Below are positions 11,381-41,673 of a DNA stretch of 64,000 nt, one piece after another. A program made the translations under genes and the position numbers. Each line of letters begins with the position of its first letter. The first letter of the stretch is position 1. The DNA lies in the IMG/VR virus record IMGVR_UViG_3300047160_006886, positions 1 to 64,000 of that record. One strand, written 5' to 3'. The notes under the pieces are model-generated. The model was not told where the DNA came from and made no database searches. It worked only from the letters and a program-made list of their open reading frames with translations. Origin of the DNA: a virus.

Positions 11381-12697
11381 CTACCTAGTAGCAATTGCAT
11401 CCAAAATTCCACAGTTTCCGTAGAAATCTGCTCTGAGCTGGGGAACTTGGATGCACATCACCTTGAAGTTGAGTCTCATTCCACCTATCGACTCCCACTG
11501 CACGGTGGTGATATCCATGCCATTGACCGCCCTCGCCACATCAGGTGTCATCTGCACCATGATGAGCCGGAACGGTGAGAGAGCGATGTCCACGTCGGTG
11601 CCGGGGCCGCGAGAGGCCGAGCCGGCACCAGTGGCCGGGATCGAACCAAACAAGAAGTCGAGACGCCGGACATCGGTGATGCCCTCGATGGACTTGAGAC
11701 GCTCCCGGAGGGTCTGGGTCGCCACGCCAGCTACGCCACCGATGCCGCCGACCACGATGTAGTCGGAGTCCATGTACTGGTCCCAATCATTGCTGTGGTA
11801 CAACATAAAGGGACCATAGAACTTATTGAGATAAAGCTGATCTCGCATGGCGAGAACATCTTTCAGCGTGTCGAGCGGCGTCCAGCCGGAGCCGGTTCGG
11901 CCGTTGCCGGTCGGCTTGTAGTTCGTGGTCAGAGCGATGCGGTTCGGGAAGTTGATGTACCCATAGACCGTGCTGTTGCGACCGTAGCCGCCGGCGTAGG
12001 TCGAGGCGCCGCCGTAGGTCACGCCAGTGCTGACACCGATGGTCGTCTTCTCTATTTTTTCCGCCACACGACGGCCGGCTGCTTCACCCATCGTCACGTC
12101 GAGCGGGGTGCCGGTGTTGCGGGAGATCGCCAGCTTGCGGGCCGAGAACCAGAAGTCGCTGTGCGTGATGGGGAGTGGCAAGCCCTGGAGCTGGAATAAT
12201 GGCTGGTCGGTGCGGCCTTCGGTCAGGGCGTCCATGTCGACGATGGCCTCGCCGGGATCGCTCATGGTCTCGTGCTCAAGGATCATCTTGGCCATGCCGT
12301 TGAAGCCGCCGAAGCTGTTACTGGCAGCCAGATCGGCCCAAGCCCGCAGACGAAAGCGAGCGGCACGGAGAACCACGGCGTCGAGCATGATCCACTCTTC
12401 CTTGCGAAGCGTTGCGGCATTGAAGACCGGATGGTCGATACCGTTGGCTCGGAGGTCCTGGATGCGGACGTTTTCATACTCGATCCGCCGCTCCATCTTG
12501 CCCGAGTCGCGGTTGCGGACCAGGCGTGGACCCTTGTTGACCATGCAGCAGGGACGACCCCGCTCATCCCGGAACGGCCGGAGCAAACCGGAATCCCAGA
12601 CGATCCCGTCATGTCCGGTCGCAGCGATCCCATCGCCGATGGGGCCGTAGCCACGTCCGTCGAGGAGGTAAGAAGCACTTGCGAACATCTTTACCAT
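11381..12697 (-). CDS. Major capsid protein (HK97 fold, linocin-M18/encapsulin-like phage clade)
   Basis: NAATLRKEEW..LD, LPLPITHSDF, YGYINFPNR, FYGPFMLY and TTVQWE...LNFKVM.IQVPQLRAD motifs; follows the protease/scaffold/decoration genes. Confidence 0.9.
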   Translation of the reverse strand: MVKMFASASYLLDGRGYGPIGDGIAATGHDGIVWDSGLLRPFRDERGRPCCMVNKGPRLVRNRDSGKMERRIEYENVRIQDLRANGIDHPVFNAATLRKEEWIMLDAVVLRAARFRLRAWADLAASNSFGGFNGMAKMILEHETMSDPGEAIVDMDALTEGRTDQPLFQLQGLPLPITHSDFWFSARKLAISRNTGTPLDVTMGEAAGRRVAEKIEKTTIGVSTGVTYGGASTYAGGYGRNSTVYGYINFPNRIALTTNYKPTGNGRTGSGWTPLDTLKDVLAMRDQLYLNKFYGPFMLYHSNDWDQYMDSDYIVVGGIGGVAGVATQTLRERLKSIEGITDVRRLDFLFGSIPATGAGSASRGPGTDVDIALSPFRLIMVQMTPDVARAVNGMDITTVQWESIGGMRLNFKVMCIQVPQLRADFYGNCGILDAIATR

Positions 12698-12763
12698 CTC
12701 CTTTTGTCTTAGTGTTTGGATGAAAGTCGTGAAGTAAGTGCCAAGCCAAGGGAGACAGAAAGA

Positions 12764-13246: not shown

Positions 13247-13326
13247 TGTTCAGTTCTCCACTATGTTTAAGGTTTAAGAGTCTAATTTCGCCGATGCCAA
13301 GGGGAGAACTTTAATCTGCGGGGGAG

Positions 13327-14073
13327 CTAGTCACGCCGTTGCTGAGCGGCCGCCTTCTCGTGGACGTTGACGCCACCGAAGTCCCTGACCCAGTCAACCT
13401 CCTGCGGAGCCATCGACTGGTCCTTCCGCTCGTTCTCGGTCAGCCGCTGTCCGCCGCCGGAGTAGGAGAAGTTGGCAACGCCACCGCCGGCCGCACCGAG
13501 GTAGTTGGTGCCCATATACTTTGAGTACTCATCCTCTTCCTCATCGCCGCCGAGGCCGCTCCCTCGATTGACCAGCACCGGTCGCTGTACCAGCGATAGC
13601 ATCTCACGAAGTTCCTCACGGGACTTCTTCATGTACTTGTTGAAGAGGATCTTCTGCTGCTTGGGATCGGCGATATTTGAAACGATCTCCCGGACCATCG
13701 CAGCCCGCTCGTGTTTGTCGATAGCCATCGCATTGACGACTGCCGAGCGAACCTCTTCCGGAGCGTTCGTCTTCTGGAGCCAGTCAAGAGTGCGGCGGTT
13801 GCCGGAGAGTTCATACTCCTCCTTGACGCCCTTGCCGCCGGCCTGAGTCGGCCCGGAGTCGGCCCGCTGCTCACCCGGCTTCATGTCAAAGGAGTGGGTA
13901 GCTTCGCCCTTGTTCTTGCCGACGGTCCTGTCGCCCTCGTCGTTCTCGACATCGTCGTCATCGTCGTCGTCATCGTCATCGTCATCCTTGGCGTTGGCCA
14001 GGAGGGCTTGCCGGGTCCGCTCGCAGGAGCAGTTCTCGGCCAGCTCTCGAATTTGTCGCCGGGTCAATGGCAT
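13327..14073 (-). CDS. Nested in-frame scaffold protein (internal start)
   Basis: AAAGGAGA-ATCAGAC-ATG at 14073 (MPLTRRQIRELAEN...); analogous to lambda Nu3 nested in gene C. Confidence 0.6.
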   Translation of the reverse strand: MPLTRRQIRELAENCSCERTRQALLANAKDDDDDDDDDDDDVENDEGDRTVGKNKGEATHSFDMKPGEQRADSGPTQAGGKGVKEEYELSGNRRTLDWLQKTNAPEEVRSAVVNAMAIDKHERAAMVREIVSNIADPKQQKILFNKYMKKSREELREMLSLVQRPVLVNRGSGLGGDEEEDEYSKYMGTNYLGAAGGGVANFSYSGGGQRLTENERKDQSMAPQEVDWVRDFGGVNVHEKAAAQQRRD

Positions 14074-17000
14074 GTCTGATTCTCCTTTGCGAGAATGGGA
14101 CCCTGGTTTATAGGACATCTTCCACGCGGAAGGTCCAGTGAGTCGGAATTGTTGCTTATTGGTCTCGGCGTTGACGGTCACCTCGACCAGGTCTTCGCCA
14201 GTGATGTCCTTCGGCATCTCATCAAGGACGAGCTGTGCCGAGTTCATGGTCGCCTTGTGCATCGAGGCGGCCTTGCGATGGAGAGCGGCGGCATTATCGT
14301 GCTCGGTCGCTCCGTCGGCATTGCCGCTCTTCCGCTCCTTGGTCGCCGCCGTCTCGTGCATCGAAGCGGCCTTGAGATGAGCCGCGGCCGCCCCGGCACA
14401 GTCGTCAGCCGAAGAACACTCCAGAGCGTTCTTGGCATGGCCGAAGGCCCTGTTGTGTTCGGTGAGCAGCGAGGCACCGGCTGCCTGCTTGGTCGCTGCA
14501 TGTGCATCGTCTGGTCCGCCCATAGTACCTCCTGGAGCCATCTCGGCTAGTGTCTGATAGGTTGAATTACGACTTGGATTGAGAGTCGCTGAAGTTGAGT
14601 TCTTGGCATCGTCCTCTTCGTCTTCTTCCCAGTCCTTGTATTCAGGCAATGATCCCTTGTTGTCGAAGCCATGCTCCTTGACCCAATCGTGCCCGAACGC
14701 ATAATTGAGATACTTCCGCTGGGCCTCGGAGACTGCTGGGTTGATGACGAAGCCGGTCGAGCCATCAGCGTTGGTCACGGGCAGGAGTATCTGATCCTCG
14801 GGGACTCCCTTGGCAAGGGAAGCTGAGTTATGTGTCTCAGATTTAAGCCGAGCTGCTCCGGTATGTTGCCGTTGAGCATACCTATGATCTGCCTCAGCTG
14901 TCCTGTGTGCTTGACGAACTGCTTCACTGCTCGATTCCCTGCCAGCCTGTTCATGAGCAACCGCCGCTTGTCCGTGTGCTTCTGCCACGTCTTTGTGTCC
15001 TTTTGTGGTAAGGTCACTGCCGGCACGAGCATGACTTGCAGCCACGTTGGAAAACTCTTTGCCTTTTCCTCCCGCGTAAGTGGATGATTTGTGGGCTTTT
15101 GCTGAAGCTGCTCTAGCTTCCTTTGCCGCTTCTCTTGCCTCTTCGGACCAAGCATTCTCAGTCAGTTCGTTGTGCACCAATGCACGGTGAGCCATCGCCG
15201 CGCCCGAATGGGCGGCAGCTGCCTCCTGGTGGGCCTTCATCCCCTCGCCGCCCCGCATGGCAGCTGAGTTGTGCATTCTCGCTGCGTTGTCGTGGGCCTC
15301 GGCCGCACCGGCGTGGTCGCCGCTCTCAGCCAGGGACATCGCCCGGCCGGAGTGGGGATTCTGACTGCCAGCCGCTCCGGTCGCAGCGTGAGCCTGTTTG
15401 GACTCTTCTGCGGCCTGACGGGCTTCCTCAGTCCACACGTTACTGATTCGCTCACTCCGCCCAAGGGGACCCCCACCAACCCCGCCATACTCTGCATCCA
15501 TAGCCCTCTTCTGGTTCGTCTGCACGGCAGCGACCGAGTAGCCCGTCTTGATCGAGGACTTGGTCTCCGGGATGGACTTGGTGCCGGAATAGGTACCGCG
15601 GAAATATTGTTCCGGAGCGTGGCTGTCCTCGTCGCCAGCTCCGGCCAGTCCCTCCTGACCAACTCTCTGCACGGTCTCGATGATGCGGCCGTCGGGGGTC
15701 ATCTGCCTGCCGACCAGCTCGGCTGCGGCGTCGTTCTCGTCCAGCTCCTCGGACGGGGGCTCGAAGGCGGGGTGAGGACCGGAGCCTCGCTCCTTGCCAG
15801 GCCAGAGACCCGGAGTGATCACATTGCTCGTTGGAGCCTTCAGTCCAGCGGCCCTCATGTGAGACTTGGCGGCATCCAAGTGAGCCGAAAAGGCGTCGCC
15901 ATGAGCACCGCGCACATAACTCTCCATTCTTGGATGTTGTCCAGCTTCCATGTGAGCATTAGCGGCGTCTAAGTGCGCGCCAGCAGCTTTCTTGTGATCC
16001 TCAGCGGATTCCGCGTTCCGGCTCAATCTCGCTGCGTCGTCAGAATGGTCCGTGAACGATCTCCCCGCCCTACTTCCCTTCACAGAATCCGTATGTCCCT
16101 TGGCCTTGACGCTGGCCGCTCTCGCCGCCTGTGCTGCTTGTCTCGCTTCATCGGTCCACACGTTCTCGGTAACGTTCACGTCAGCCACGTCTCTGCCGGG
16201 CCAGAGTCCGGCGGTGACCTTGTTGGCGGCGAGGGAGAGGAGGTCGACGGTCTTCTCAAAGAGACTGGTCTGCTGGTTGTGCGTTCCTCCACCACTCAAG
16301 AGATCATAATGAGCTGCGGCCATCGTCTTGGCTTCAGCCGGCGAGCGAGCCGTTCCCAGATGGTGCCAGAGACCACCTCCGACTTTGCTTTGTGTGTTGG
16401 CGAAATGGACCAAGTATCCCGCATGCCGGCCACTCGAAGTCGTGGTCGGTGAAACGTGATACTCGCCGTGCTCTGTCCTAGTTGTGTAACCATACTTGCC
16501 TTCAGCGGCTCCGGTTCCACCCGCATGAGTTGACCACTCAAGCTTGCTCTTACCAGTTCTAGCACTTTTACGTGCCTCGATGGCTGCTTGTCGAGCCTCT
16601 TCCGTCCAAGTGTTCCCCGTCAGCTGCTCTGCTCCCCTCAGATCCTTGACCGGAGCCGCCGGCGTCTTCCTCGGCACGTCGTAGGTGCCCGGATCGGTCT
16701 CGCTGCCCATGTTGGTGTCTCCTCCCTTCTCGTAAGGTTCTCGCTTGGTGCCACTCCACGACTTCCGCAGGATGTCGGCGGCAGCCCGCTCCCGCATCAT
16801 CGAGTTCTCATGGCTGCGGGCGATGTGCTCCTGGCCGACCTCATTGTAAGCCTTGGCGGCGTCTTCGTGCATCTTGGCAGCTCCGAGATGGGCCTTGATG
16901 GCGTCGCCGAAATCGCTCTTGCCCTTGGCGGTCTCGCTCTGCCGTCCTGCTGCTTCGTGCAGGTCGCGGGCCTTGGCTCGTACTCGCTGATCCTTGGTCG

Positions 17001-18765
17001 CGTAGGTCTCGGCGGGAGCGGGAGTCACGTTGGCAGTCAACTTCTTGTATCTCGTTCCTGGGAACGATCCTGAAGGCTCGCCTCCCGTCATCCCGTTCTC
17101 CCAGACAAGATGATGGTGCCCTCCGGGTTGTTCCGTCGCCATCACATCTTTGCCAGTAACGCTGTCGTGATGCGTCGGCTTGAAGTCCACCTCGGTCGTT
17201 TCGACATGTGGATCGGCGTGGGACGAGTCCCAATGCTGGTAGAACTCCTTGGCATCAATGCTCGGCTTCAGGCCACGTTCTTTGACGTACTGCCCATAAC
17301 CAGCCTGCCGATCTCGCGTGTAGCTCTTGACTCTTTGTACCAGCTCACGGTCTGACAGCTCATTCGACGGGATCGGTCTCTTCACCGTGACGGTTTTGCC
17401 GGCCCCGCCAGTAGAAGCGAAACGGCCTCGTTCATCTCGTTCCTGTTCGGCGTTCTTCGCATACGAATGCTTCTCGAAGTCCGTGTGGATCTCGCCATGA
17501 CCCCTGACCGCCGCGTTGTGGGGCTTGCCCTGCCAGGAGCCATCATGATGCCGGGGCTGAGGCGGAGCAGCGGTGAAGGGCCGGCCCGAGAAGAGGGTCG
17601 AAGGATGGTGCTCTTCCTCGTCATCAGGGTTGACCACCAGATCGGTGTCGCCGGGAGACGTGCCCGAGAGGATCGCCGAGTCGGCCTTGTGACCGGCTCC
17701 CTTCTTGACCTGGATGCGGAGGGATTGATCGTCATCGCCACTGCCTTCGTTCTTTGTCATCTTGCTCCCCTCCTTTGAATGCTCGGAATAAGCTCGATTT
17801 GCTAGATCAATGGCATCGCGGAGGTCACCACCAGCATGCTCTTCCATCGCGTTGAAGAGGAGGGCCTGATACCAGTCCTCATAGTCGTGAGCACTTAAGG
17901 CGTCGTCGAGCAGCTTGGCTCGGTCAATGGCGTTCGTGGCGAACCGAAAGCCAGTTGCCGACTCTCGCAGTTTGTGAAGACCCTCTTTAACTCCGGCGGC
18001 CGACGAGAGACCTTTGGCTGCTTCTTTCGACCGAGAGATGCTCTCCTTAATGGCGTCCTTGGCGGCTCGATAGGTCTTGATTGGATTACGGGCAGCGGAG
18101 TAGAGGATGTAGGATGATGAGGCGGCCGGAGCCAGGCTGGCCAGGGTGCCGGCCGGACCCGCTCCGTGGCCGGCGATGGCGACGGGCTTGGCCAGCATGG
18201 TATCCCAGGTCGCCAGCGTGTTCTTTAGAGCCTTCGCCTCCTCCGGAGTCCGACCGCGAGCGACGGCCACCTTCTCAGCCAGGTTCTGCCCTGCGTGATA
18301 GGTCGAGAAGAGAGTGTCTTTGACAACTCTGCCGGCGAAGAAGGAGGCACGAACCGGACCCTGCATCGGCTTGGGCAACTTCGAGACCGCGGCCTCCAGC
18401 TTATCCTTGACCCAGGTCGAGGCCGCGTGCTCCATCGCCTGAGCATACTCTCGCGGCTTGCCGCCGACCAGCTTCGCCGCAGCCAGGGCCGAGCCGACCG
18501 ATGACAGGGGAGAGCCGAACGCTTCCATCCCATGAGGCAGGGTGTGGAATCCTTCGAGATGTTCCAGGCCGTGACCGGCGATCTCGCCGACCGTCTCGAC
18601 CGAGTGACCGAGGTGTCCGACCTCCGCTCCGACCGGGTGAGAAGAGTGTTCAGCCCCATGACCAGCCGCGACGTGGACCGGACTTGCCCCACCTCCCCCT
18701 TCGGATGAGAACCGCCCTGCCTCATCTCGCGGATGGTCTTCTTCCTCCCACTCAGCATTGACCAC
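13327..18765 (-). CDS. Giant scaffold/cargo polyprotein (1812 aa), in frame with the upstream protease across one UGA
   Basis: The C-terminal ~250 aa are scaffold-like (acidic tract, helical). The rest contains repeated N-xWT(E/D)EARQAA, RDExGRF and His/Ala-rich helical modules. No SD upstream of GTG 18765. Confidence 0.8.
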   Translation of the reverse strand: MVNAEWEEEDHPRDEAGRFSSEGGGGASPVHVAAGHGAEHSSHPVGAEVGHLGHSVETVGEIAGHGLEHLEGFHTLPHGMEAFGSPLSSVGSALAAAKLVGGKPREYAQAMEHAASTWVKDKLEAAVSKLPKPMQGPVRASFFAGRVVKDTLFSTYHAGQNLAEKVAVARGRTPEEAKALKNTLATWDTMLAKPVAIAGHGAGPAGTLASLAPAASSSYILYSAARNPIKTYRAAKDAIKESISRSKEAAKGLSSAAGVKEGLHKLRESATGFRFATNAIDRAKLLDDALSAHDYEDWYQALLFNAMEEHAGGDLRDAIDLANRAYSEHSKEGSKMTKNEGSGDDDQSLRIQVKKGAGHKADSAILSGTSPGDTDLVVNPDDEEEHHPSTLFSGRPFTAAPPQPRHHDGSWQGKPHNAAVRGHGEIHTDFEKHSYAKNAEQERDERGRFASTGGAGKTVTVKRPIPSNELSDRELVQRVKSYTRDRQAGYGQYVKERGLKPSIDAKEFYQHWDSSHADPHVETTEVDFKPTHHDSVTGKDVMATEQPGGHHHLVWENGMTGGEPSGSFPGTRYKKLTANVTPAPAETYATKDQRVRAKARDLHEAAGRQSETAKGKSDFGDAIKAHLGAAKMHEDAAKAYNEVGQEHIARSHENSMMRERAAADILRKSWSGTKREPYEKGGDTNMGSETDPGTYDVPRKTPAAPVKDLRGAEQLTGNTWTEEARQAAIEARKSARTGKSKLEWSTHAGGTGAAEGKYGYTTRTEHGEYHVSPTTTSSGRHAGYLVHFANTQSKVGGGLWHHLGTARSPAEAKTMAAAHYDLLSGGGTHNQQTSLFEKTVDLLSLAANKVTAGLWPGRDVADVNVTENVWTDEARQAAQAARAASVKAKGHTDSVKGSRAGRSFTDHSDDAARLSRNAESAEDHKKAAGAHLDAANAHMEAGQHPRMESYVRGAHGDAFSAHLDAAKSHMRAAGLKAPTSNVITPGLWPGKERGSGPHPAFEPPSEELDENDAAAELVGRQMTPDGRIIETVQRVGQEGLAGAGDEDSHAPEQYFRGTYSGTKSIPETKSSIKTGYSVAAVQTNQKRAMDAEYGGVGGGPLGRSERISNVWTEEARQAAEESKQAHAATGAAGSQNPHSGRAMSLAESGDHAGAAEAHDNAARMHNSAAMRGGEGMKAHQEAAAAHSGAAMAHRALVHNELTENAWSEEAREAAKEARAASAKAHKSSTYAGGKGKEFSNVAASHARAGSDLTTKGHKDVAEAHGQAAVAHEQAGRESSSEAVRQAHRTAEADHRYAQRQHTGAARLKSETHNSASLAKGVPEDQILLPVTNADGSTGFVINPAVSEAQRKYLNYAFGHDWVKEHGFDNKGSLPEYKDWEEDEEDDAKNSTSATLNPSRNSTYQTLAEMAPGGTMGGPDDAHAATKQAAGASLLTEHNRAFGHAKNALECSSADDCAGAAAAHLKAASMHETAATKERKSGNADGATEHDNAAALHRKAASMHKATMNSAQLVLDEMPKDITGEDLVEVTVNAETNKQQFRLTGPSAWKMSYKPGSHSRKGESDMPLTRRQIRELAENCSCERTRQALLANAKDDDDDDDDDDDDVENDEGDRTVGKNKGEATHSFDMKPGEQRADSGPTQAGGKGVKEEYELSGNRRTLDWLQKTNAPEEVRSAVVNAMAIDKHERAAMVREIVSNIADPKQQKILFNKYMKKSREELREMLSLVQRPVLVNRGSGLGGDEEEDEYSKYMGTNYLGAAGGGVANFSYSGGGQRLTENERKDQSMAPQEVDWVRDFGGVNVHEKAAAQQRRD

Positions 18766-18801
18766 TGCAGCGGCAACTGCCGCCCGGCCGTCCTTCGGTC
18801 A
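18759..18801 (-). promoter_or_regulatory. In-frame UGA with SECIS-like recoding hairpin (candidate)
   Basis: UGA at 18799-18801, then GCGGCA-GU-UGCCGC with the apical GU 22-23 nt downstream; lower UGACC/GGUCA pairing; codon context C-P-T-UGA. Confidence 0.5.
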
Positions 18802-19491
18802 GGTCGGACACTTGGGCTTCTTGCCGTTGCAAGTACAACCATTACTCCCGACCTTTCGATTCGCTACGACGCCGATTCCACAACCATCATTCACCGAGCA
18901 GGCCCCGATCTGACCGATGAGGACAGCCAGATGGTCGGGTCGATAGTTGCGAGCGATGTAGTCGAACGCCTGCCCCTTGTAATTCGCTCCCGGCAGGGCT
19001 CGTTCGTTATCCGTGTAGAGGCCGGTTGACAGCTCGGTCGGGATGCCGTTGGTCAGGTTGTGGTAGATCTGCTCCCGCTCTTCTCGATAAGGACGGAGGG
19101 GGTCCCGGAGCAGGGCGAGGTCAAACCAGGCGTTCGCTCCGAGCTTGCCGTTCATCGAGGACTCGGCGATGAAGCCTAGACCTTGGTTATTCCAGACATT
19201 CGGATCGAGAGAACCGTCGGATTTGTGAGCCGAGACGTTGGAACCGTCGCCGGCGAGGGGGTGGAAGAGGACCAGGGGCATCCCGTTCCAGTCCGGAGTC
19301 GAGTTGCGACACTCTTCTGCCGGGTAGAACAGCTTGCCCTTGGAGCCTTCAAGGACTTGAGGGACGATGATGGTGGCGGGAGCAACCAGGTACTCACGGC
19401 CATTGCGGATGGCCCGGCGAGCCTTGGTGACTTTGACGCCGAAGTTCAGGACGAGGATCTGACGGCGGTCGAAGATCTCGGCAGCATCCAT
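18799..19491 (-). CDS. Prohead maturation protease, DUF2213-like
   Basis: EYLVAP..II..QVL...LFYP.EE...WNG.PLV..HP, ELSTG and PDHLAVL...GACS motifs; upstream of scaffold and MCP. Confidence 0.85.
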   Translation of the reverse strand: MDAAEIFDRRQILVLNFGVKVTKARRAIRNGREYLVAPATIIVPQVLEGSKGKLFYPAEECRNSTPDWNGMPLVLFHPLAGDGSNVSAHKSDGSLDPNVWNNQGLGFIAESSMNGKLGANAWFDLALLRDPLRPYREEREQIYHNLTNGIPTELSTGLYTDNERALPGANYKGQAFDYIARNYRPDHLAVLIGQIGACSVNDGCGIGVVANRKVGSNGCTCNGKKPKCPT

Positions 19492-20099: not shown

Positions 20100-22307
20100 T
20101 CACGACTCCTCCAGATCCACAAAAAGCCGCACCTTCCCCTGATTGTGAATGTTGGCGTTCTTGTGAATACCTTTGACTATGTAAACCGTTCCGTGCCTAC
20201 CGATCAGCTCCTTCTCAGACTTGAACCCATCAGACGAAATGATGGGATGAACTCCCTTGGTCTTGATCCGTAGCAGTAGTTTACCATAAGAAAATCCATA
20301 GCTCGTCGACGGTGACAGACTCGTCCCATGTGGGGCAGTATCCACATATGTCCCGCCGACGCCCTGATCCTCAAGCTTCTTGATCAATTCGTCCGAGTAC
20401 GCTCCGTGGATGCCTCGATATACAGTTCCTGCATACGGAGGAGACTTATATACCGCACTAAGAAAGTTCTTCGTCGACTCGCTCTGCGTGCCCGTGGTGA
20501 CCTGATTTCGCATCGAACTCTGACTGCCGCCTTTCCAATGGGCAATGGCAGATCTTTCGGATGAACTGAGACTTGCTGCCCATTTCTCGTGCTGCTTCTC
20601 TTGTTCGGCCGTCATGCTCGACGATGTCAAATGGTGAGTTGCGCCGTCGGTAGTACCGGCGGCGATCTCTGCCTGTGTCATCGGTTTGACTGTCGCCGAT
20701 GGCTTACCGACCTCAACTCCAGCGGCACCGAAGTCCAGCTCCGATTCGTGATGGACCTTCGAGTACTTCGGAACTGAGATGCCCTTGGCGGCGAGCTTCC
20801 CAGGGGTGATCGAACTCTTCTTGATCACCGTTCCGGCCGGCAGAACCTTCCCGAGGTCCTCTATCTTCTTGGCATTGGCTCCCTTATCACCGGAGAACAT
20901 CGGCACCTTGATCACGCCGTTCTTGATCCCTTGTGGATTCAAAGCGCTAATCTTTGCCAGCTGCATGTGCGTGAATTGGACCGTTCCCTTGTTCTGAAAC
21001 AGATGCTTGACCAATCCGTTGGCAGAATGGAGTTGATGCTCTGTCGACGCCTGCGGATACGTCTGCGACTGTGTCGGAGTGTACGTCGGAGCCGGAGCCG
21101 GCTTGGGAATACCTGTTCCTTCTTTCTCCTTCAACCAGTTCTGCAAGCTATCAAACCGCTTGTCGACGATGGCACGCGTCTCCGGGTTCTTGATCGCTTT
21201 CAGCACGTCCATTTTCTTCGGCAGGATCTCCTTGATCTGTTCTTTGATCTCTTTATCCCCGATATGCCCGAACACACTCGCAGCACTCGGATTCAGACTC
21301 GAATTGCGAAGTGTACTTAGTTCGCCAACTTCAGACCCAAACTTGTGCCCCTTCGCCGCCCCTTGCGCCCTGTACAGCAACGCTCCTCCATTGTCGGCCC
21401 GCAAGGCAGTTCCGTCTTTGGTGATGAGAATGTTGTCCTTCGTCAGCCCTGCCACATCCCAATTAGCAAGTAGAGAATCAGCTACAAAGTGCTTGCCGAT
21501 CTGCTCATGCATCTTGGCAATGTCGGCGGGACTATGAGAGCTCTCGTATTCTGCGAGAGTTTGAACTCCCTCATGGTATTCGCTGACCTTGGCGATTCCC
21601 GTCGTTCCAGCAGCGGGAGCAATGCCGGACTTCGGGACTTTGACTCCAAGAGCGCGGTAAGCGTTGTCAGCATCCACCTCGTTGGCCAGTTGTAATTGCT
21701 TGGCTGGACTGCTCTTCACGACCCAGCGATTACCAGCCTCGTCTTCCATCAACTTCGGGCCAGTAGTTCCAGGCAGATCCTTGATGTATTTCATACCCTC
21801 CACTGGCGGCACATAGTCCGGTGGGAAATAAACAGGATGAGGCGTGCTCAGAGGAGCGACAGGCAGAGCGGGAGGAGCGACAGGCGTTGTCAATATCGTG
21901 CCTGGTTTCGATACTCCAAAGAATGCCCAGCCATTGACAGCGGTATCCGATCCCTTCACCGCCTTGGCTGCGGATGTCAGGCTGCCATATGTCTTATCAC
22001 CGATCTTGAAGCCACCGTGTACCACCTCTACCTTGAATGTCTGTCCTTTGTAGACCTTCTCGAACGATCCACCCACAGGAGGCAGAACCTGACCAGAAAC
22101 AGCTGCAGCACCGACGCCGCCAGGAGAGCAGCTTGGATCGACGCCCCCGCCGGGGCCGGTTGGACAGAACGCATTTATCACCGGGTCGTCCTGCTGATCC
22201 TCCCACTCCATCCAGAAGAGAGGATCGCTCTCATCAAGGTCAAACTCCTGCTCCGAGATGACTGGCCCGGATACGTGTCCGCGAAGAGCTGCTAATGTCT
22301 CACCCAC
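20100..22307 (-). CDS. Multidomain effector: tag + DUF2924 + HipA/PI3-4-kinase-like + ADP-ribosyltransferase
   Basis: NAFCPTGPGGGVDPSC tag; SLTSAAKAVKG...NGWAFFG; kinase VVK...NEV...NWD...DNIL...DNGG; ART YRG...GTS...EKE (R-S-E class). Confidence 0.8.
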   Translation of the reverse strand: MGETLAALRGHVSGPVISEQEFDLDESDPLFWMEWEDQQDDPVINAFCPTGPGGGVDPSCSPGGVGAAAVSGQVLPPVGGSFEKVYKGQTFKVEVVHGGFKIGDKTYGSLTSAAKAVKGSDTAVNGWAFFGVSKPGTILTTPVAPPALPVAPLSTPHPVYFPPDYVPPVEGMKYIKDLPGTTGPKLMEDEAGNRWVVKSSPAKQLQLANEVDADNAYRALGVKVPKSGIAPAAGTTGIAKVSEYHEGVQTLAEYESSHSPADIAKMHEQIGKHFVADSLLANWDVAGLTKDNILITKDGTALRADNGGALLYRAQGAAKGHKFGSEVGELSTLRNSSLNPSAASVFGHIGDKEIKEQIKEILPKKMDVLKAIKNPETRAIVDKRFDSLQNWLKEKEGTGIPKPAPAPTYTPTQSQTYPQASTEHQLHSANGLVKHLFQNKGTVQFTHMQLAKISALNPQGIKNGVIKVPMFSGDKGANAKKIEDLGKVLPAGTVIKKSSITPGKLAAKGISVPKYSKVHHESELDFGAAGVEVGKPSATVKPMTQAEIAAGTTDGATHHLTSSSMTAEQEKQHEKWAASLSSSERSAIAHWKGGSQSSMRNQVTTGTQSESTKNFLSAVYKSPPYAGTVYRGIHGAYSDELIKKLEDQGVGGTYVDTAPHGTSLSPSTSYGFSYGKLLLRIKTKGVHPIISSDGFKSEKELIGRHGTVYIVKGIHKNANIHNQGKVRLFVDLEES

Positions 22308-25300
22308 CGAGGTGCTCCTTCAGCAGTGCAGTCGTGTAATGAGCATCGAAGATCTTCGCCATCCCTGGATGTCGCTTGCGATAGCCCTCAAGGAACTTTC
22401 CGTCTCCACCCTCATACTTATCTCGGTATATCTCGCGGTGGTAGAGACGATAATGCTCAGCGAAATTCTCTTCCCAGTTGTCCAGACTACGACGACCGGC
22501 CACACCGTACTTTTCCTCGTACCATTCGTGAGGCATCTTAGTCTTGAGTCCGGCCGGGTCTGCTTTTACCCGGTCCATGACTTTCTTGTACTCATCGCTG
22601 ATGGCTTCGGTCATAGTGTTTTTGTTGCTGTAAGACGAACCACCCAGAGACCCCCGGAGGACATGCCCCAGCTCGTGCCTGTAGCTTCCTGGTCTGGTCG
22701 TCGAGCCAACCTCGATCTGACGTGATCCGAGATTGGCCAGGGCTTCACCGCCGAGAGCAGTCTTATGTACTGTGATCTTCGTCAGAGCGTCCAAGTCATA
22801 CTTCGGCGTATCACTGAACTCCTTCACTGGTCCGCCCGCAAGTCCACTCGTAATCTCCACAACTCGATTCGGATTTCCTCTGACGACCTGGGTCACGGCG
22901 TTCTCGACAGCACTACCAGACTTAAAGATAGAACCGGTCACCTTTGTTCGCATTTCCATATCCGATGACAGACCAGCCTTTAACTGCTCTTTCGAGTAGC
23001 CAGTATCTTTCGCTACTGACGACAGGACCGACCCCAAGCCATGTTCGGTAGTTGGCGACGGAGTGGTTACCGCAGGAGGAAGAGGGAGGAGAGACTGGGG
23101 AGCTGCTTTCGTCAGACCGAAGAACGCCCAGCCATTTATCGGCGTGTCAGTGCCCCGGACAGCCTTCGCCGCCGCAGTGAGACTCTTGTGAACTTTGTCT
23201 CCGATCTTATAGCCATCGTGCGTGACTTCAACTTTGATCTTCTGTCCTTTGTACGTTTTCTCAAACGTGCCTCCAACCGGAGGGTGGGGCTGACCCTTTC
23301 CGGGCGAACATGAGTTATCCTGACCTCCCCCAGGTCCGGTTGGACAAAAGGCATTATACGTTAGTGGTTCCTTACCTTTTGGATTGTAGACCTGTAATGC
23401 CCAGATGAATTTATGCCCGGCCTTTCTGAATTCGTTCACTCGATGGTGTCCGTCTTCAACTGACCATTTCGAGTGTTTACTCTCCTCCATCCCCTCCGGA
23501 ACGCCCTCGGTTATGACCGGCGGATGCAATCCAGATGGATTTTTCTTGATAATACTCGCTATGTCTTTTCTTGGTGGTGAGTCACCGATAGGATTCTCAG
23601 ACCCAGCTAGAGCACGAACAGGAACAGACACCAGTTTCCATTTCAGTTCTCTGATATTGCGAACATTACCTGCTTCAGCTTCCGAAACAGCATCTTCAAC
23701 CAGCTTCTTACTGGGGGGATCGTACTTTGGCTTCTCCGAATGAGAGCACGAAGGATCAACTCCTCCACCTTTTCCAGTTGGACAGAAAGCGTTCCACGTG
23801 TACCCCGGCCACGGGCACGCCGGCCACAACCGGGCTCCATCGGTGCCGAAGTGTCGGATGTTGAGGATCGACTTAGGCCGCGATGTCGAAAGTGGGGAAC
23901 CAGTGACCGCCCCGACCACCTTCAGTATCGTGCTGATGGCCGACTTCGACCGCTTCTGACCCTTGGTATCTTCGCCGACGTTGGCCGGAATCCAAGCGCA
24001 GCGACAATTCGGGTGCTGGGGCAACATGCCGCGAGCCTCGTCGGTCGTCAGGACCACCCCGTCGAGCTGTTCACAATCGGGACAGACGTCCTCATCGTCA
24101 GCAGTCGACCACTCGACGGCAGCGCCGACCTCTTCGATGCCCAGGGCGTCGAAGCCGTCGAGCTGCCCTTCGGCGTGGGCACGGATGATCTCGGTTCTGG
24201 CGATGGTCAGGGCCCTCTCGCGGCCGACGTCGACCGCCTTGGAGAGGTCACGGCCGATGTCTCTCGGAGACTGCCCCTGGACCAGCCCGTCGAGAAGGGT
24301 CCGAGACATCCTGATCGCCATCAGCTGGGTGACTCCATCCAGCTCGGTGAAAACCCTCCCGGCCAATTGCTTGACGCGGTCGATGGAGATTGGGTTGGCG
24401 AAGGCCGAGCGGAGGAACTGGGCCTTGGTTCCTTCGAAGAAGTCCATCGGTTCACCCATCGTCTGACCGAGGGCCTTCTCGGCGGCGGTGGCATCCTCGA
24501 ATGCCCTCCCCTGGCCCTTGGCGTACCCTTGCATGATGTACTGCTGCCAGAGCTGATCCATCGTCTGGCCGCGAATCTGCGACTGGACCTGCTGCTTGAG
24601 CCACGCCTTGAACGCCTCGACCTGTTCAGAGGTGGTGTGGAACTTCCAGCGAGTGTTGTCAATCAAAGCGTTGCGAGTCTGGGCTTTCACTCGAACCTCA
24701 GATCGTTCGGCATCTCTCGCTCTCTTTTCCATCTGATCTCGCGTCAGTTCATCTCTTTTATCGGTGATATCCCTAGCATGTTGCAGTTCGTGCCGCCAAG
24801 TCCGTCCTGCTTGATCCTTCAGTTCTGGATCAGTAAAAAGTATATGAGGAAGATTTACTCTAGCTCCACCTTTGCCATCTCCGAACGCTTGTGGCAATGC
24901 GTTCTTCAAGACATGAACAGTCACTCCGTGCATAGGAACGTGGGCTTCCCCTTCCAACCATTCTAGATACCTCTTCGCTCTAGCATTCCCAGCTCTCAGT
25001 TTGCCAGAACTCCTAACTTTTGGCGAACAGCTTGGATCAACTCCTCCGCCCTCGCCGGTGGGACAGAAGGCGTTGCGAGTGAGCGTATATTCCTTCATCG
25101 CAGGAAGATCTCTGACATCAACAGAGTATCCGTAGGACTTGCCAATCTCCTTGGAGATCCTGTCGTAGAACACCACTCGACTCGGCTCGCTCTTCGCGGC
25201 AGTGAACTCCATCGACCTCGGCTGCTTGTCCTTGATGAACTGACTCAAGGATGTCTGCACTCCTCGGAGCACCTTGATCGGAGACGTGTTCGGATCGTGA

Positions 25301-27534: not shown

Positions 27535-27641
27535 GACGTCACTTGCTCCCGAAGTACCACATGGCGAAGATGAGGAGAGCCACCAGCCCCATCACACCGG
27601 TGATGAAGATGTCCCACGGGTCATGCTGTTGCGATGCTGGG

Positions 27642-35881: not shown

Positions 35882-35887
35882 TCGCTT

Positions 35888-36106: not shown

Positions 36107-36108
36107 GA

Positions 36109-36747: not shown

Positions 36748-37579
36748 CGTTCGTCTCCGTAGTTATGGTCGCAGTGGACCGACTCCCGTCCGCATGGCGG
36801 AAGCTGATAGTCTTCTCCCTGGGTCGGACCAGAGTTGCCAGCTCCTCGGCGACATTGGCAATGGCCTCGATAGATGGCTGTAATTCACCGACGATGACTC
36901 CCGCCAGCTCCTCGACCGGCATATTCACTGTCACCGGCGACGACTGGCTATTGACGACCGGTGGTTGCTGGGGCCGAGCCAGGTTAGCGACGAGGGAAGT
37001 AAGCTGCGATAGCTGCTGGTCAAGACTCCGGACCAGACCACCCAGGGTCCCGGCCATCGCCGATAGGACTTCCGCCATCGCTGTCTGCGATTCCTTCAGA
37101 GCATTGGCGACCGGAGTCATATCGACGAGAACCTCCACCGGCACCTCACTCGCCATGATGGTCGGAGCGAACTTATTGGTGATAGGCGTGGGTTCGATGC
37201 GGTTCTCGATAGTCACTGGAGTCGGCTGGAGCGATGGCAGGTTCAACTGCGGCGAAAACTCATTCCGGATCGGTGTTGGCTCAATCCGGTTTTCGATGGT
37301 CACTGGGGTAGGCTGAACCTGCGGGGAAAAAGTCGGCGAGAACTCATTCCGGACTTCCGGACTTTGGAGCCGGTTCTCGATAGTGATGGGTGTCGGAGCT
37401 ACTTCGTTGATGACCGCCGGCGTCTCGACCGAATTGTGCACATGCACGTCCGGTGGCGTCGCAGCCGGAATTTCATTATGGACATAGGGCGGAAGCTGTC
37501 GCTGGGTGAGTCGCTTGTTCAGGACCCGGCCCATCGCCTTGATGGCGACTTGCATGTCATCGCTGAGGACACGACTCAT
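36731..37579 (-). CDS. Internally repetitive protein (PTPxTIENR / RNEFSP repeats), probably head-associated
   Basis: Three PTP(I/V)TIENR repeats and many V/I-x-N motifs; AAGGAGG RBS. Confidence 0.7.
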   Translation of the reverse strand: MSRVLSDDMQVAIKAMGRVLNKRLTQRQLPPYVHNEIPAATPPDVHVHNSVETPAVINEVAPTPITIENRLQSPEVRNEFSPTFSPQVQPTPVTIENRIEPTPIRNEFSPQLNLPSLQPTPVTIENRIEPTPITNKFAPTIMASEVPVEVLVDMTPVANALKESQTAMAEVLSAMAGTLGGLVRSLDQQLSQLTSLVANLARPQQPPVVNSQSSPVTVNMPVEELAGVIVGELQPSIEAIANVAEELATLVRPREKTISFRHADGSRSTATITTETNDDDEQ

Positions 37580-37865
37580 GATGAAGCCGACCTCCTTCCG
37601 CCACGATAGACTTTCTTCGGGTAGGTCAGAGAGGGAAAGTTGTTCTGCAGTCGCTTCGGCTTGGCGTGGCTCAACCGTTCGCCGCGGGGGCGCATCGAAC
37701 CGGGGATCACCTTGCTCCGTTGAATGTTCATCAGTCAGACCCTCTCAACATAGTTGATAAGAGACATCCAGGCGGCACGGTCAAAGTGGAGTCCCGACAG
37801 AATCATCCACCGCTCCACCTCTTTCAGCCAGGCATTGAAGAGCACGCACTTGGCGATGTCGGCCA

Positions 37866-38099: not shown

Positions 38100-38308
38100 G
38101 ATCGCGGATCTCCTCCGTGCTCCAACTCCTTGTCGACCTGCCACTCGCAGTTGGCCCACCTCGCTACGTTGGTCCTCTGCAACTCGAAGCAAGCGATACA
38201 CATCGGGGCCGGGTAGATCTCAAAGCCATTGCGGAAGATGGTCATGTCCGGGAAGGTCTCGGCCATCATGCCGCAGCGAAGGCAGGGTTCAGCAGGGCGG
38301 ATGGTCAC
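38096..38308 (-). CDS. Small zinc-finger protein
   Basis: CLRC...CIAC; coupled to the portal stop. Confidence 0.55.
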   Translation of the reverse strand: MTIRPAEPCLRCGMMAETFPDMTIFRNGFEIYPAPMCIACFELQRTNVARWANCEWQVDKELEHGGDPRS

Positions 38309-41300
38309 TGCATCTCCTCCTCCATCATATCGGCGACCTCGGCTATCCGGTCGTCGTCGTCGTCGTCGTTGCTCCTTCTGTTATCGACGCCTCGGTACCG
38401 ATTCTCTGTGTCCTCATCAGCCTCTTCATCCTCCTTTTGTTCCTTCGCCTCGCCCTCATCCTCATCACCCGACTCGGCTTTAGCTTCCTTCCTTGCCATT
38501 CCAGCTTCGGCGTCGGGAGACTGCTGCCCTCCATCCCCCCTGCCGCCTTGGCCATCACCGCCGCCCTCTCCTCCTTGCTGCTGTCCGTCGAGATTGGTGT
38601 CGCCGCCGAATCCATCACCGCCTCCTTTGGAAGGGTCCTTGTAACCTTCGGGAGCCTGCGGCACGTAGCCCTGCTCATCCGCCAGGTCTGCTCGCTCTTG
38701 CTCCTCCTCTTCCTGCCGCTTGGTGGCTTCATCAACGACCGCCTGCGACTCTTCCTCGGTCCAACCGAGGATCTTGGTGAAGAACGATTGCTCGCTCATG
38801 ATGTTCGACATCCCACCGGGACCGGCGTAGAGTTGCAGAGTCTGGGCGTTCTGAAATGCGATGCCGGCTTTGTCCTTCTTGCCCAGGGCGTCGACATCCG
38901 GCCACTCGATGCGGTAGCCGCCAGTGGCGACCTCGATCTGCTTGTCCTTGGTGCCCTTGGTCGCCTTGCCATTATCCTTTCCGTTCCCGTTCCCGCCGTT
39001 GCCGCTGTCATCATCGTCATCATCACCCTGATTTCCGACGAAGCGGTTCCTGGCGGCCTGCTTCTCGTAGACCATGTCGCGGATGGCTGCTGCCGTCGCG
39101 GTCTTCTTCTCACCGGATGGCGCGGTCAGTTCGTAGTGGGTGACCCACTTGCCCTCGTGCGGTATCGACTGTCCCATACCGAGCTTGTAGCCCATCTGCT
39201 TGAGTGCTGCCTGAACCTGCGGCAAGTTGGCCTTCCTCTTGTTCTTCGGCAGTTTAACTGAGTGAGTGCCCCCGCCATCGGCGAAGCGGCCGGCTTCATC
39301 TCGCGGCTGGTCCTCATCATAGTTGAAGGCGGGTACTGGCTGGCCAGGCTTGACCAGCAGGAAGTTCTTGACCAGCCGTCCGGTCGCCTGATCCCGACGG
39401 ATGACCTGTCGCTTGATCTTAAAGCCCTGCCGCAGGAGGTTCTGAACCTGCTCCTTCTGGCTCTCCTTAGGCTCGGGCAACACGCCGATCTGGATGAGCC
39501 GGTCGATGAGAGGGCAGATGATCTTCGGCGTGATGTAATTCTGCTGCCGCTCGGCCTTCCGCTTGTTCCAGGCTTCGTCGTCCTGGCTGCTGGCCAGTTC
39601 GCCTCGCTCCGAGCCCTTAAAGACACGAATCGGACAGCCAATCTTGATGCAGATCGCTTCGATGCAGGCATTTAAGTGCGGGGTCGGATCGACGACTGAT
39701 GGCGGCAGGGTCTTGGCCGACATGCCCATCAGCACGAGATATCGCTGGAGGCGGGCCTTGTAATCGACCATCATCTGGCGAATGCTCGGCTCGTCGATGA
39801 GCACATCGCCGCCCAGAGTTGGAGCGGTCTCCAGGCTGATAGACGGGAAGCAGCTTTGCCAGTAGCCCTCGGCGCCGGCACCGCGGACCTTCCTACGGTC
39901 AAGCACCTCAGGTAGGACCTGCTTCAATCGCGGGAAGCCGAAGATCTCCGAGTTGAGGAGGTTGTCGGCGATGTGGATGACCCTTGACCAATGCACGTAG
40001 ACAGTAGCCAGGGGTAGACCCACACCAGAATGAGGCTGGCGAGGATCATTAAGGGTAACCCGATACATAACAGGCAGACCGAATCGCGGGTTGCGGATGT
40101 TCCACTCATACCTCACCACCTGCACTAGGTCTTCTGAGAAACAGCGGAGGAAGACGAGTCGCCGCTTCTTCTTGGCCGGCTTGTCGGCGAAGCTCTCCGA
40201 GGGGCCGAACTGGACGCCGAAGTATTGCTGGTCAGTTCCACTGAGAGAAGGAGCAATTTCTCCGATAGGAGCCGGCATGCCGAGGCCGAATCCTTGACTG
40301 TACTGTCGGTCAGTTCCCTGGATGAACGGACCATCGCCCGGATATCCCGCACTCCGACCAAGATACGGGTCAATATCCGGCGTAGTTTTGTTTTCGACAC
40401 GCCCGCTGAGTGTTTCAGCCCCACCTCGATCAGAGCCAGCGACTCGTCGTCGGGCCTGAAGGGACTCGATGATCTTGACGTTGTTCTCATGGTTGGTAAC
40501 AAGTTGTCCTCCTCGCTTGTTGACGATGATGCGGCCGCGGTCGGTCAGGACGCAGGCTTGAGTCTGACGGTCCCACTTCCAGAGACCATCCCGCTTCAAG
40601 CTCTCCGCTTCCCGCTCCTCGACCCAGGGATCATAATTGAAAGTCGAGTCCTCGCGGTCGGTGACATCGAGCTGACCGATCTCTCTCGTCTCGCCGTTCT
40701 CCCACGTGGAGATCGGGATCACCTTTCTGTTATCGATGATGGCAATCTGCTCATTATCAGCCAGCTCCGCCGCCGACGGTGGATGATCGGGCAGGACCTC
40801 CTGGCAAGAGACCCACTCCAGCTGCCTCGTCTTGAGGTTGCGGACCTGGACGCGGGTATTGGCGATGACCTCAACACCATCGACCGGGTCCTGCAGATTC
40901 TTGCCATCGTCGAGACCGAGGAGGATGATGCCGAACTGGCCAATGCCTGAAGTGATATCCGCTCGAAGGATGTGCTCCCAGATCGGTGCACCCTGCTCTT
41001 CGGCATGCCACGAGCTGCCCGACATATTGACCTGATTAGCAGTGTCATCCCATGCCTCCTCAAACTCGGTCGCCTCGTCGGAATGCTCAGACTCGTAGAT
41101 GGTCGGAGCACCCTGGAAGCACTCCTTGGGCATCACCTCGACCACCCTGGCGGCGATGGCGTCCTGGTCGTAGAGGGAACGATAGAATTGCGGGGTCATC
41201 TCCTCCGGCGACGGCCAGCCGCACTCCTCGCGGATCATGTGACCCCGCTCGAAGAAGCGGTTGAAGAACTCGCTCCGGGAGGTGACGACCTGGTTGATGA

Positions 41301-41673
41301 CACCGTCCATGTTGGCGATGAACCGCTCCATGTCTTCGCGAGTCGGTGGCGTGCCCTGGAAGGTCCGCCGCAGATCACTCGGATCGAAGCCGTGAGCGTT
41401 GAAGGCAGGTCCGTTTTGACCATTGCCATTGCCGAATGGTGGAGGTGGGGGTGGGGGAGATGATCCGCCGAAGCCCCTCCACTCAGGAGGTGGAGATGCT
41501 CCGCCAGAGCCGGCTCCATCCGGCGGAGGAGAAGGTGGGGGTGAGCCGCCCCCGGTATTGCCAGTGGGGGGACTGCCTCCACCCGGAGTCTGTTCGTGCG
41601 TCTCTCCGGAAGAGTTGCCGACCGGCGGCTCTCCAGAATTGGTCGTCGGTGTTCTTCTTCGCTGCCTCGCCAT
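38305..41673 (-). CDS. Portal protein (DUF1073-like) with low-complexity termini and inserted modules
   Basis: LY.QDAIAARVVE..PKE, PRFGLPVMY, VHWSRVIH..D...FG.PRL and IGCPIRVFKGSERGELASSQD motifs; downstream of terL. Confidence 0.85.
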   Translation of the reverse strand: MARQRRRTPTTNSGEPPVGNSSGETHEQTPGGGSPPTGNTGGGSPPPSPPPDGAGSGGASPPPEWRGFGGSSPPPPPPPFGNGNGQNGPAFNAHGFDPSDLRRTFQGTPPTREDMERFIANMDGVINQVVTSRSEFFNRFFERGHMIREECGWPSPEEMTPQFYRSLYDQDAIAARVVEVMPKECFQGAPTIYESEHSDEATEFEEAWDDTANQVNMSGSSWHAEEQGAPIWEHILRADITSGIGQFGIILLGLDDGKNLQDPVDGVEVIANTRVQVRNLKTRQLEWVSCQEVLPDHPPSAAELADNEQIAIIDNRKVIPISTWENGETREIGQLDVTDREDSTFNYDPWVEEREAESLKRDGLWKWDRQTQACVLTDRGRIIVNKRGGQLVTNHENNVKIIESLQARRRVAGSDRGGAETLSGRVENKTTPDIDPYLGRSAGYPGDGPFIQGTDRQYSQGFGLGMPAPIGEIAPSLSGTDQQYFGVQFGPSESFADKPAKKKRRLVFLRCFSEDLVQVVRYEWNIRNPRFGLPVMYRVTLNDPRQPHSGVGLPLATVYVHWSRVIHIADNLLNSEIFGFPRLKQVLPEVLDRRKVRGAGAEGYWQSCFPSISLETAPTLGGDVLIDEPSIRQMMVDYKARLQRYLVLMGMSAKTLPPSVVDPTPHLNACIEAICIKIGCPIRVFKGSERGELASSQDDEAWNKRKAERQQNYITPKIICPLIDRLIQIGVLPEPKESQKEQVQNLLRQGFKIKRQVIRRDQATGRLVKNFLLVKPGQPVPAFNYDEDQPRDEAGRFADGGGTHSVKLPKNKRKANLPQVQAALKQMGYKLGMGQSIPHEGKWVTHYELTAPSGEKKTATAAAIRDMVYEKQAARNRFVGNQGDDDDDDSGNGGNGNGKDNGKATKGTKDKQIEVATGGYRIEWPDVDALGKKDKAGIAFQNAQTLQLYAGPGGMSNIMSEQSFFTKILGWTEEESQAVVDEATKRQEEEEQERADLADEQGYVPQAPEGYKDPSKGGGDGFGGDTNLDGQQQGGEGGGDGQGGRGDGGQQSPDAEAGMARKEAKAESGDEDEGEAKEQKEDEEADEDTENRYRGVDNRRSNDDDDDDRIAEVADMMEEEMQ

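Follow-up and report, generated by a model that had tools for sequence, protein, structure and literature searches.

To our knowledge, the prohead proteases with a known cutting rule are few: those of phage T4, of phiKZ and SPN3US, of HK97, and of the herpesviruses. T4 gp21 cleaves at [LI]xE, a proven site found in gp22, gp23, and gp24; capsid-targeting leaders are present on Alt and on the internal proteins of T4. Herpesvirus assemblins cut between Ala and Ser; Asn occurs only at P2, in some maturation sites of the form V-N-A/S. As far as we know, DUF2213 is a very widespread protease family whose cutting rule is essentially unstudied, and the known Asn-specific endopeptidases, the legumains, are cysteine enzymes. 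In the jumbo phages, mass spectrometry has proven that phiKZ gp175 and SPN3US gp245 cut at Ala-x-Glu, gp245 reading its sites in a P3-x-P1 register (PMC10052503). Here, we analyze a 64,000-nucleotide stretch of viral DNA (the window, positions 1 to 64,000 of IMG/VR record IMGVR_UViG_3300047160_006886, itself 111,990 bases long), in which Thr or Val two positions before Asn, hereafter [TV]xN, recurs in the head proteins beside the gene of a DUF2213-related prohead protease. In the best reading, to which we assign a probability of roughly 0.6, this motif is a P3-x-P1 cleavage code with Asn at P1, read by the clade's own prohead serine protease.

Nearly all genes of the window lie on the minus strand. 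The head genes follow the order portal, MuF, ADP-ribosyltransferase (ART) protein, protease, scaffold, a 160-residue open reading frame (ORF), and major capsid protein (MCP), the protease gene standing ahead of the scaffold and MCP genes as in known head modules. The principal ones are:

38305..41673, minus strand: portal protein, 1122 residues, with N- and C-terminal extensions; 15 [TV]xN against 5.0 expected
22300..27534, minus strand: MuF polyvalent protein, 1744 residues, with five Cys-loop tags and 2H, HAD, MuF core, DUF2924, and zincin-like modules
20100..22307, minus strand: cargo protein, 735 residues, DUF2924, kinase-like, and ART by family searches
18799..19491, minus strand: prohead protease, 230 residues, gp21/assemblin fold, DUF2213-related
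13327..18765, minus strand: scaffold polyprotein, 1812 residues; 21 [TV]xN against 6.9 expected
11381..12697, minus strand: MCP, DUF6260, HK97/encapsulin fold, with a 93-residue N-terminal leader

Two of these chains hold several unrelated domains, within the 2-15 per polypeptide that characterize polyvalent proteins: MuF, 2H, HAD, and DUF2924 in the 1744-residue protein, and DUF2924 and ART in the 735-residue one.

An earlier reading of the window made from sequence only had proposed that a motif [V/T/I/A]-x-N precedes module boundaries across all head proteins, and all 19 sites it named are present where it placed them. Its expected contrast between head and non-head proteins is also borne out: of the 227 Asn that the seven head proteins contain, 100 are part of [VTIA]xN where 57.5 would be expected (binomial p 7e-10), and in 18 non-head proteins the count is 92 of 304, against 84.4 expected, with 15 of these 92 in one repeat protein (Fisher p 0.0014 for head versus non-head, 5.6e-5 without the repeat protein). 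For [TV]xN, the counts are 58 versus 26.6 expected in head proteins (p 7e-9) and 49 versus 44.4 in the non-head set. The excess is carried by the scaffold and the portal, as listed above, by the MuF protein (11/5.8), and by the protease (5/1.9). The ART protein (2 versus 3.1 expected) and the 160-residue head ORF (0) have no such excess; thus, a code in "all head proteins" was too broad a claim. The proposed residue class at -2 likewise needs narrowing, being mainly Thr and Val, then Leu and Ile, with Ala weak.

The same signal is far stronger in relatives. Related viral loci were taken as the best 80 by protease match, and motif statistics were computed on 67 non-identical protease-scaffold ORFs. 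When all residue pairs at distances of 1-4 were scanned without bias, the top two couplings were Val and Thr at -2 of Asn (z ~26 and ~25, respectively). The scaffold tails of these ORFs hold 592 [TV]xN against 184 expected (3.2-fold), representing 38% of their Asn, with 63 of the 67 tails exceeding expectation and a median spacing between sites of 23 residues. After removal of redundant contexts, Thr or Val still precedes 241 of 705 Asn, compared with a background of 11.7% (2.9-fold, p 6e-55). The coupling belongs to Asn: its ratio for T/V at -2 is 3.21, whereas each of the other 19 residues stays at or below 1.05, including Glu ([TV]xE 1.05). In the non-redundant scaffold contexts, Pro and Leu are favored just before the Thr or Val, while the residue after the Asn is unconstrained (A, Q, E, S, T, K, D, and others), with Gly depleted 0.5-fold. 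Outside the scaffolds, ORFs upstream of the capsid gene, which include polyvalent proteins and portals, have a [TV]xN ratio of 1.35, and the tail genes downstream of it in the related loci have no excess (0.98).

Two trivial sources of the signal were considered and rejected. The DNA form of the motif is frequent only in the coding frame (1342 occurrences versus 269 and 130), and this confinement to the codon frame rejects a DNA-level motif. An artefact of composition or repeats is rejected by the specificity for Asn and for frame, by the null result in tail genes, and by persistence after redundancy removal.

The same count was applied to the proven T4 motif as a control. The T4 scaffold core protein gp22 contains 16 [LI]xE versus 5.8 expected (2.8-fold) and gp21 contains 7 versus 2.6, with ratios of 1.71 for head proteins overall and 1.24 for non-head proteins. 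Because a proven motif gives the same signature, the new motif statistically resembles a known cleavage motif. A P3-x-P1-type motif is over-represented in the scaffold or core proteins of the window clade, as it is in T4/phiKZ maturation.

The enzyme that would read this motif is the 230-residue protein. It has 104 homologues, many with PF09979 (DUF2213), and the domain is carried by more than 30 homologues that are 35-50% identical to the window protease. The window protein itself scores 14 bits against PF09979 (E 0.05), below the cut-off of 22 bits, and on these scores it is DUF2213-related rather than a scored family member. Across 40 aligned homologues, H77, S155 (in E-x-S-T-G), and the pair D186-H187 are invariant and form a putative catalytic set of His, Ser, and a third His or acid. 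In an AlphaFold2 (AF2) model with a predicted local distance difference test (pLDDT) score of 87, residues 17-211 are ordered, and the best match in the Protein Data Bank (PDB) is T4 gp21 (5jbl; Foldseek E 4.5e-4, prob 1.0). VIA-align superposes the two with Z 10.6 and a root-mean-square deviation of 3.4 Å over 138 aligned residues. In an exhaustive comparison with 48,161 chains, T4 gp21 was the only match with Z at or above 8, followed by the proteases of two herpesviruses, varicella-zoster virus (VZV) and human cytomegalovirus (HCMV), with Z 6-7.5. The model thus places the protein in the T4 gp21/herpesvirus assemblin fold, and the "DUF2213-like protease" of the sequence-only reading can now be described as a DUF2213-related prohead protease of that fold. 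A profile alignment (hhalign) with gp33 of the T1-like coliphage TLS is weak (E 0.002, prob 14%), with His, Ser, and His aligned.

Most of the best 80 related loci encode the protease domain together with a 200-1000-residue scaffold in one ORF. In the window, the two are in the same frame, parted by a single TGA. The protease ORF ends in C-P-T followed by the TGA, and 11 further in-frame codons lead to the scaffold start (18765-18801, minus strand). The 40 aligned homologues include at least 13 that likewise end in P-x-C-P-T plus stop, a sequence similar to the start of the two-cysteine tag A described below (its first half); among the retrieved related viral loci, no protease ends in C-P-T plus stop. 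The TGA could be a site of programmed readthrough or recoding, or the split could be genuine.

The MCP has the motif where a maturation protease would be expected to cut. Two sites stand out (here and below, the slash follows the motif Asn):

12419..12427, minus strand: VFN/A, predicted MCP maturation site, Asn93
12536..12544, minus strand: MVN/K within the MCP leader, Asn54, a conserved alignment column that reads TVN/T in relatives

Asn93 is among the 17 invariant columns of 47 MCPs, and the residue at -2 is V, T, L, I, or M across the alignment. In the AF2 model of the MCP (pLDDT 81.6), residues 90-94 fall below 50 and are the sole mid-chain stretch of low confidence. Complete chains of encapsulin and HK97 fold align to MCP residues 93/94-438 (Z 23-25); hence, the Asn93 site divides the 93-residue leader from the MCP fold, and the motif is predicted by the model to sit at the boundary between leader and mature fold. 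Two Asn recur within MCP leaders when the alignment is inspected by eye, uncounted, one near residue 8 (Asp in the window) and the other at residue 54.

The protease fold is bracketed by two motif copies:

19444..19452, minus strand: VLN/F, end of the disordered protease N-terminal leader, Asn16
18859..18867, minus strand: VAN/R, junction past the protease fold, Asn211

Residues 1-16 have pLDDT below 50, and the model is disordered again from residue 212. By eye, uncounted, the leader Asn is present in most of the 40 aligned proteases, as the sole consensus residue of the leader and with T, V, L, I, or A at -2. At the other end, an Asn lies within five residues past the DGCG motif in all 67 related protease-scaffold ORFs. 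On the AlphaFold models, a mapping put forward as a check with the original proposal, MCP Asn93 stands at the fold start, and protease Asn16 and Asn211 stand at the two ends of the ordered region.

In the scaffold, the MuF protein, the ART protein, and the portal, the motif precedes three recurrent tags. Tag A is a two-cysteine, glycine-rich loop with six copies in the window; tag B is a QPRD..GRF-type box with three; tag C is a helix start of the form W-[TS]-E-E-A-R with four. The scaffold sites are:

18757..18765, minus strand: VVN/A, ahead of tag B, scaffold start
17452..17460, minus strand: AKN/A, ahead of the second tag B, Asn438
16612..16620, minus strand: TGN/T, ahead of tag C, Asn718
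16162..16170, minus strand: TEN/V, ahead of tag C, Asn868
15439..15447, minus strand: ISN/V, ahead of tag C, Asn1109
15154..15162, minus strand: TEN/A, ahead of tag C, Asn1204
14740..14748, minus strand: VIN/P, ahead of a small conserved module, Asn1342

The sites in the cargo-bearing proteins are:

27049..27057, minus strand: VDN/A, ahead of tag A copy 1 (degenerate), MuF Asn162
26518..26526, minus strand: ALN/T, between the 2H and HAD modules, MuF Asn339
25516..25524, minus strand: VLN/A, ahead of tag A copy 2, MuF Asn673
25072..25080, minus strand: TRN/A, ahead of tag A copy 3, MuF Asn821
24655..24663, minus strand: IDN/T, upstream of the MuF core, MuF Asn960
23791..23799, minus strand: TWN/A, ahead of tag A copy 4, MuF Asn1248
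23353..23361, minus strand: TYN/A, ahead of tag A copy 5, MuF Asn1394
22173..22181, minus strand: VIN/A, ahead of tag A at the ART protein N-terminus, Asn45
39322..39330, minus strand: AFN/Y, ahead of tag B just past the portal core, portal Asn784
41398..41406, minus strand: AFN/A, end of the Gly/Pro-rich portal N-terminal region, portal Asn92, a site absent from the earlier list

The association of tags and Asn extends well beyond the window. A back-translated tag A pattern found 54 viral stretches, and a count made with a pattern that did not require Asn gave Asn two residues before the Phe in 122 of 122 unique copies on viral contigs; the P3 residue of these copies is T in 42, V in 38, L in 15, A in 10, I in 8, and S in 7, so that T/V/L/I/A make up 93%. 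For tag C, Asn stands two residues before the Trp in 24 of 27 unique copies, and for tag B, [TVILA]xN lies just upstream in 39 of 44. Tag-bearing contigs are also among the best 80 protease loci in 13 of 46 cases, and three of four further records searched for the protease encode it, the fourth being 16% complete. Ten-odd stand-alone ORFs with tag A, B, or C never begin at the tag itself; each has a 7-18-residue leader ending in [LIVT]xN, which by sequence would correspond to the motif-ending leaders of packaged proteins in T4/phiKZ-type maturation. The same back-translated scan of bacterial genomes gave chance matches, with the full tag in none of at least 120 stretches, and is uninformative on prophage distribution. 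Full-text literature searches returned no description of the Cys-loop tag. Taken as an interpretation of processing after Asn, the sequence-only reading stands insofar as hydrophobic-x-Asn marks the classical substrates, namely the MCP leader, the protease ends, the scaffold, and the tags of the MuF, ART, and portal proteins; it does not extend to an enrichment in the ART protein.

By analogy with T4 and phiKZ/SPN3US, a working mechanism can be proposed. The recognition signal would be T or V, less often L, I, or A, followed by any residue and Asn, often with Pro or Leu one residue earlier; the aliphatic residue would occupy P3 and the Asn P1, with the cut falling after Asn within the assembled prohead. 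The unconstrained side after the motif is as expected if Asn is the last residue recognized. The 93-residue MCP leader would then be removed, the protease would be released from its own leader and from the scaffold, and the scaffold would be cut to pieces of ~20-40 residues, free to exit or remain. The enzyme modules on the MuF, ART, and portal proteins would be separated, and each released module would start with one of the three conserved tags. More tentatively, and with less confidence than we place in the cleavage code itself, the locus may represent a modular cargo-loading system of a large clade of uncultured phages, made of a DUF2213-type protease switched from Asp to Asn at P1, a polyprotein scaffold, and portable tags. 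In such a system, the two-cysteine loop, the QPRD..GRF box, and the W-T-E-E-A-R helix would be the new N-termini of the released enzymes, serving as handles for capsid retention or for passage through the tail.

Several points weigh against an Asn-directed cleavage code. The scaffolds of distant cultured DUF2213 phages (Brevundimonas MaInes and Salmonella KFS-SE2) are unenriched, and the rule would accordingly be specific to the clade of the window phage. The window protease falls under the Pfam threshold for DUF2213, as given above, and many of the 100 [VTIA]xN copies in head proteins lie within folded domains, such that not all can be cut. The MuF protein could be processed by the two zincin-like modules within it. 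From the observed motif, its Asn specificity, placement, and conservation, and the enzyme fold, we infer the cutting itself, the bond that is cut, and the travel of released modules with the DNA. Finally, the cut in TLS falls one residue past an Asn, which could make Asn the P2 residue, and this TLS Asn can be aligned with MCP Asn93 via the spacing to a conserved Trp.

TLS offers the one experimental anchor for the register. Its gp33 is a clear DUF2213 protein (E 4e-23), and Edman degradation of its mature capsid protein, gp36, gave the N-terminus A-S-D-M-G-I-W (PMC11447400). In the TLS gene, K-N-D directly precedes A-S-D-M; the DUF2213 protease of TLS thus cuts after Asp, with Asn at P2. The spacing from the capsid Asn to the Trp is 8 residues in TLS, Brevundimonas, and KFS-SE2 and 9 in the window clade. 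These data can be read in two ways: P1 is Asp in some clades and Asn in others, or the conserved Asn occupies P2, with cleavage one residue further on. In the latter case, the protease and motif would be the same but T/V would be P4, as in TLS (K-N-D/A, with the slash at the cut) and in the herpesvirus maturation sites of the form V-N-A/S. In addition to the TLS cut and the 8- versus 9-residue spacing, by which the two Asn may be homologous, this shifted register is favored by the Ala that follows Asn93 in most MCPs and the Ala or Val that follows the Asn of tag A. We nevertheless regard it as unlikely. In scaffolds, the residue after Asn is broadly distributed, and such freedom at P1 would be atypical of this protease fold; the characterized relatives, SPN3US and the T4 control, read P3 and P1, which together with the unconstrained position favors Asn at P1. 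A further indication comes from the scaffold C-terminus, where most scaffolds have an element L-P-x-P-[TV]-[IM]-[N/D]-[WFY], 3-15 residues before the stop, that may be a coat-binding end or the last cleavage site. Its key residue is Asn in 33 ORFs and Asp in 13, and Asp in the window (E-V-D-W, within 13327-13420), an interchange at one conserved site that supports Asp and Asn as alternative P1 residues and fits an Asn equivalent to the P1 Asp of TLS.

The motif may instead be a docking or capsid-targeting peptide that is bound uncut, with the portal, the protease, or the capsid interior as the anchor for scaffold and cargo. The leaders of stand-alone cargo ORFs would suit a pure targeting signal as well, and the motif-like C-terminal element lies in the region by which scaffolds usually contact coat protein. 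Docking is difficult to reconcile with scaffolds that each have dozens of copies, a median of 23 residues apart, and the copies at the MCP leader boundary and at both ends of the protease fold occupy classical cleavage positions rather than docking positions, making this account improbable as well.

We consider it very unlikely that the zincin-like metallopeptidase modules of the MuF protein do the processing and that the motif is their site. Two HExxH modules can be read in the MuF sequence but were not confirmed by any family search. Motif enrichment peaks in the scaffolds, and the MCP and the protease, both of them prohead protease substrates, have the motif too; the primed side of the motif is unconstrained, whereas zincins usually read that side. 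Processing of polyvalent proteins by MPTase domains is nonetheless a proposal of Iyer et al., 2017 (PMC5512222).

Asparagine peptide lyases, among them the nodavirus coat protein with its scissile Asn-Ala pair, cleave themselves at Asn through a succinimide. Such protease-free cleavage is highly improbable for the window proteins, since they have many sites in disordered linkers without a fold to supply catalytic groups, rather than one autocatalytic Asn set in a catalytic fold, since Gly, the most succinimide-prone follower, is depleted after the motif, and since a neighboring gene encodes a dedicated protease in which His, Ser, and His are invariant. Equally remote is the absence of any functional code, with the motif arising from composition, repeat ancestry, or a structural habit of Asn capping a helix after a strand: helices do follow tag C and the MCP site, and even the non-head window proteins have a mild excess of V and I two positions before Asn, but tail genes lack the excess, the coupling is confined to Asn of all 20 residues and to the coding frame, it persists after redundancy filtering, and it occurs in unrelated sequence contexts, including the Gly-rich tag A.

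Read as an Asn-directed cleavage code, the locus can be set beside each described system. With T4, it shares the protease fold, the P3-x-P1 logic, the strong motif excess in the scaffold core protein, and short motif-ending N-terminal leaders on packaged enzymes, an ADP-ribosyltransferase included. It differs in its key residue (Asn instead of Glu) and P3 (Thr/Val instead of Leu/Ile), in a protease that shares an ORF, or at least a reading frame, with a giant scaffold polyprotein, and in cargo strung on MuF and portal proteins with conserved tags after the site, known here from sequence alone. Like phiKZ and SPN3US, the window phage would have motif-directed processing of many head and ejection proteins, with multiple copies inside propeptides; those jumbo phages use Glu at P1 and encode cargo in separate genes rather than polyvalent chains. 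With Asn as the coupled residue in place of Glu, the system would work like T4 and phiKZ/SPN3US maturation but falls outside their specificity class. TLS has a protease of the Pfam family to which the window protein is divergently related, and an MCP leader lost at an Asn-containing site; it differs in cutting after Asp, with Asn at P2. Herpesvirus assemblins have a related fold, are made as fusions to the scaffold with a release site between the two, and have an active site of the Ser-His-His type that runs His, Ser, His along the chain (PMC4498786). They differ in having few sites per protein, compared with dozens in the window clade. The MuF-centered chain, with 2H, HAD, ART, ParB-like, and zincin-like modules on one polypeptide, agrees with the polyvalent proteins of phages and conjugative elements as defined by Iyer et al. 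Zincin peptidases were proposed as the processing enzymes of polyvalent proteins, whereas the window joints match the inferred site of the prohead protease; the searchable text of that paper (PMC5512222) mentions neither the Asn motif nor the Cys-loop tag.

In full-text searches of a literature that was incompletely covered, no account of a prohead protease with cleavage after Asn was found. The searches returned nothing useful on capsid processing in Pbunavirus or T1, and the DUF2213 papers found merely name the domain. An MCP search against cultured phages matched only Brevundimonas and Citrobacter phages (26-29% identity), with no close relative in the collection, and a tblastn search of cultured phages with a segment spanning a tag and DUF2924 gave a single weak match, which was unrelated.

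Family searches of other window genes identified a family A DNA polymerase, a primase-helicase, a methylase, and the large terminase. The portal has a Gly/Pro-rich N-terminal region of ~90 residues (41400-41673, minus strand) and, at its C-terminus, an extension of ~340 residues that includes acidic low-complexity runs (38305-38700, minus strand), and these extensions far exceed the needs of a portal core. Between the portal and tail-fibre-like genes lies the 282-residue repeat protein (36731-37579, minus strand), in which V, T, I, or A occupies -2 in 15 of 17 Asn and repeats such as T-I-E-N and [VI]-R-N-E-F recur; this protein may be another of the internal or ejection proteins that the prohead protease would cut. 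No Pfam family was found for this protein, for the 160-residue head ORF, or for the module after VIN/P in the scaffold, DUF3008 included in the last case. Just upstream of the MuF gene, long ORFs overlap on both strands (27539-28102 and 27543-28586), and the minus-strand one, with its extreme Arg/Ser content, is perhaps not a genuine gene. Scaffolds of relatives, such as those of loci L061 and L063, have more small modules, each directly after [TV]xN, including a G-G-P-G-S-G-P-H box, a P-S-W-V-x-D box, and a C-x-C box, and tag A itself occurs in one related scaffold (L062). From their sequences, the scaffolds of the clade look like polyproteins of small modules.

If the reading is correct, an Asn-specific serine protease would be unusual biochemistry, and the Thr/Val-x-Asn rule would predict the ends of mature capsid, portal, scaffold, and packaged-enzyme proteins in hundreds of uncultured phages. 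It would make the full set of mature proteins delivered with the phage DNA readable from sequence alone and would explain how giant polyvalent MuF proteins are converted to separate anti-host enzymes. Such a system would also be a natural design for loading foreign proteins into capsids.

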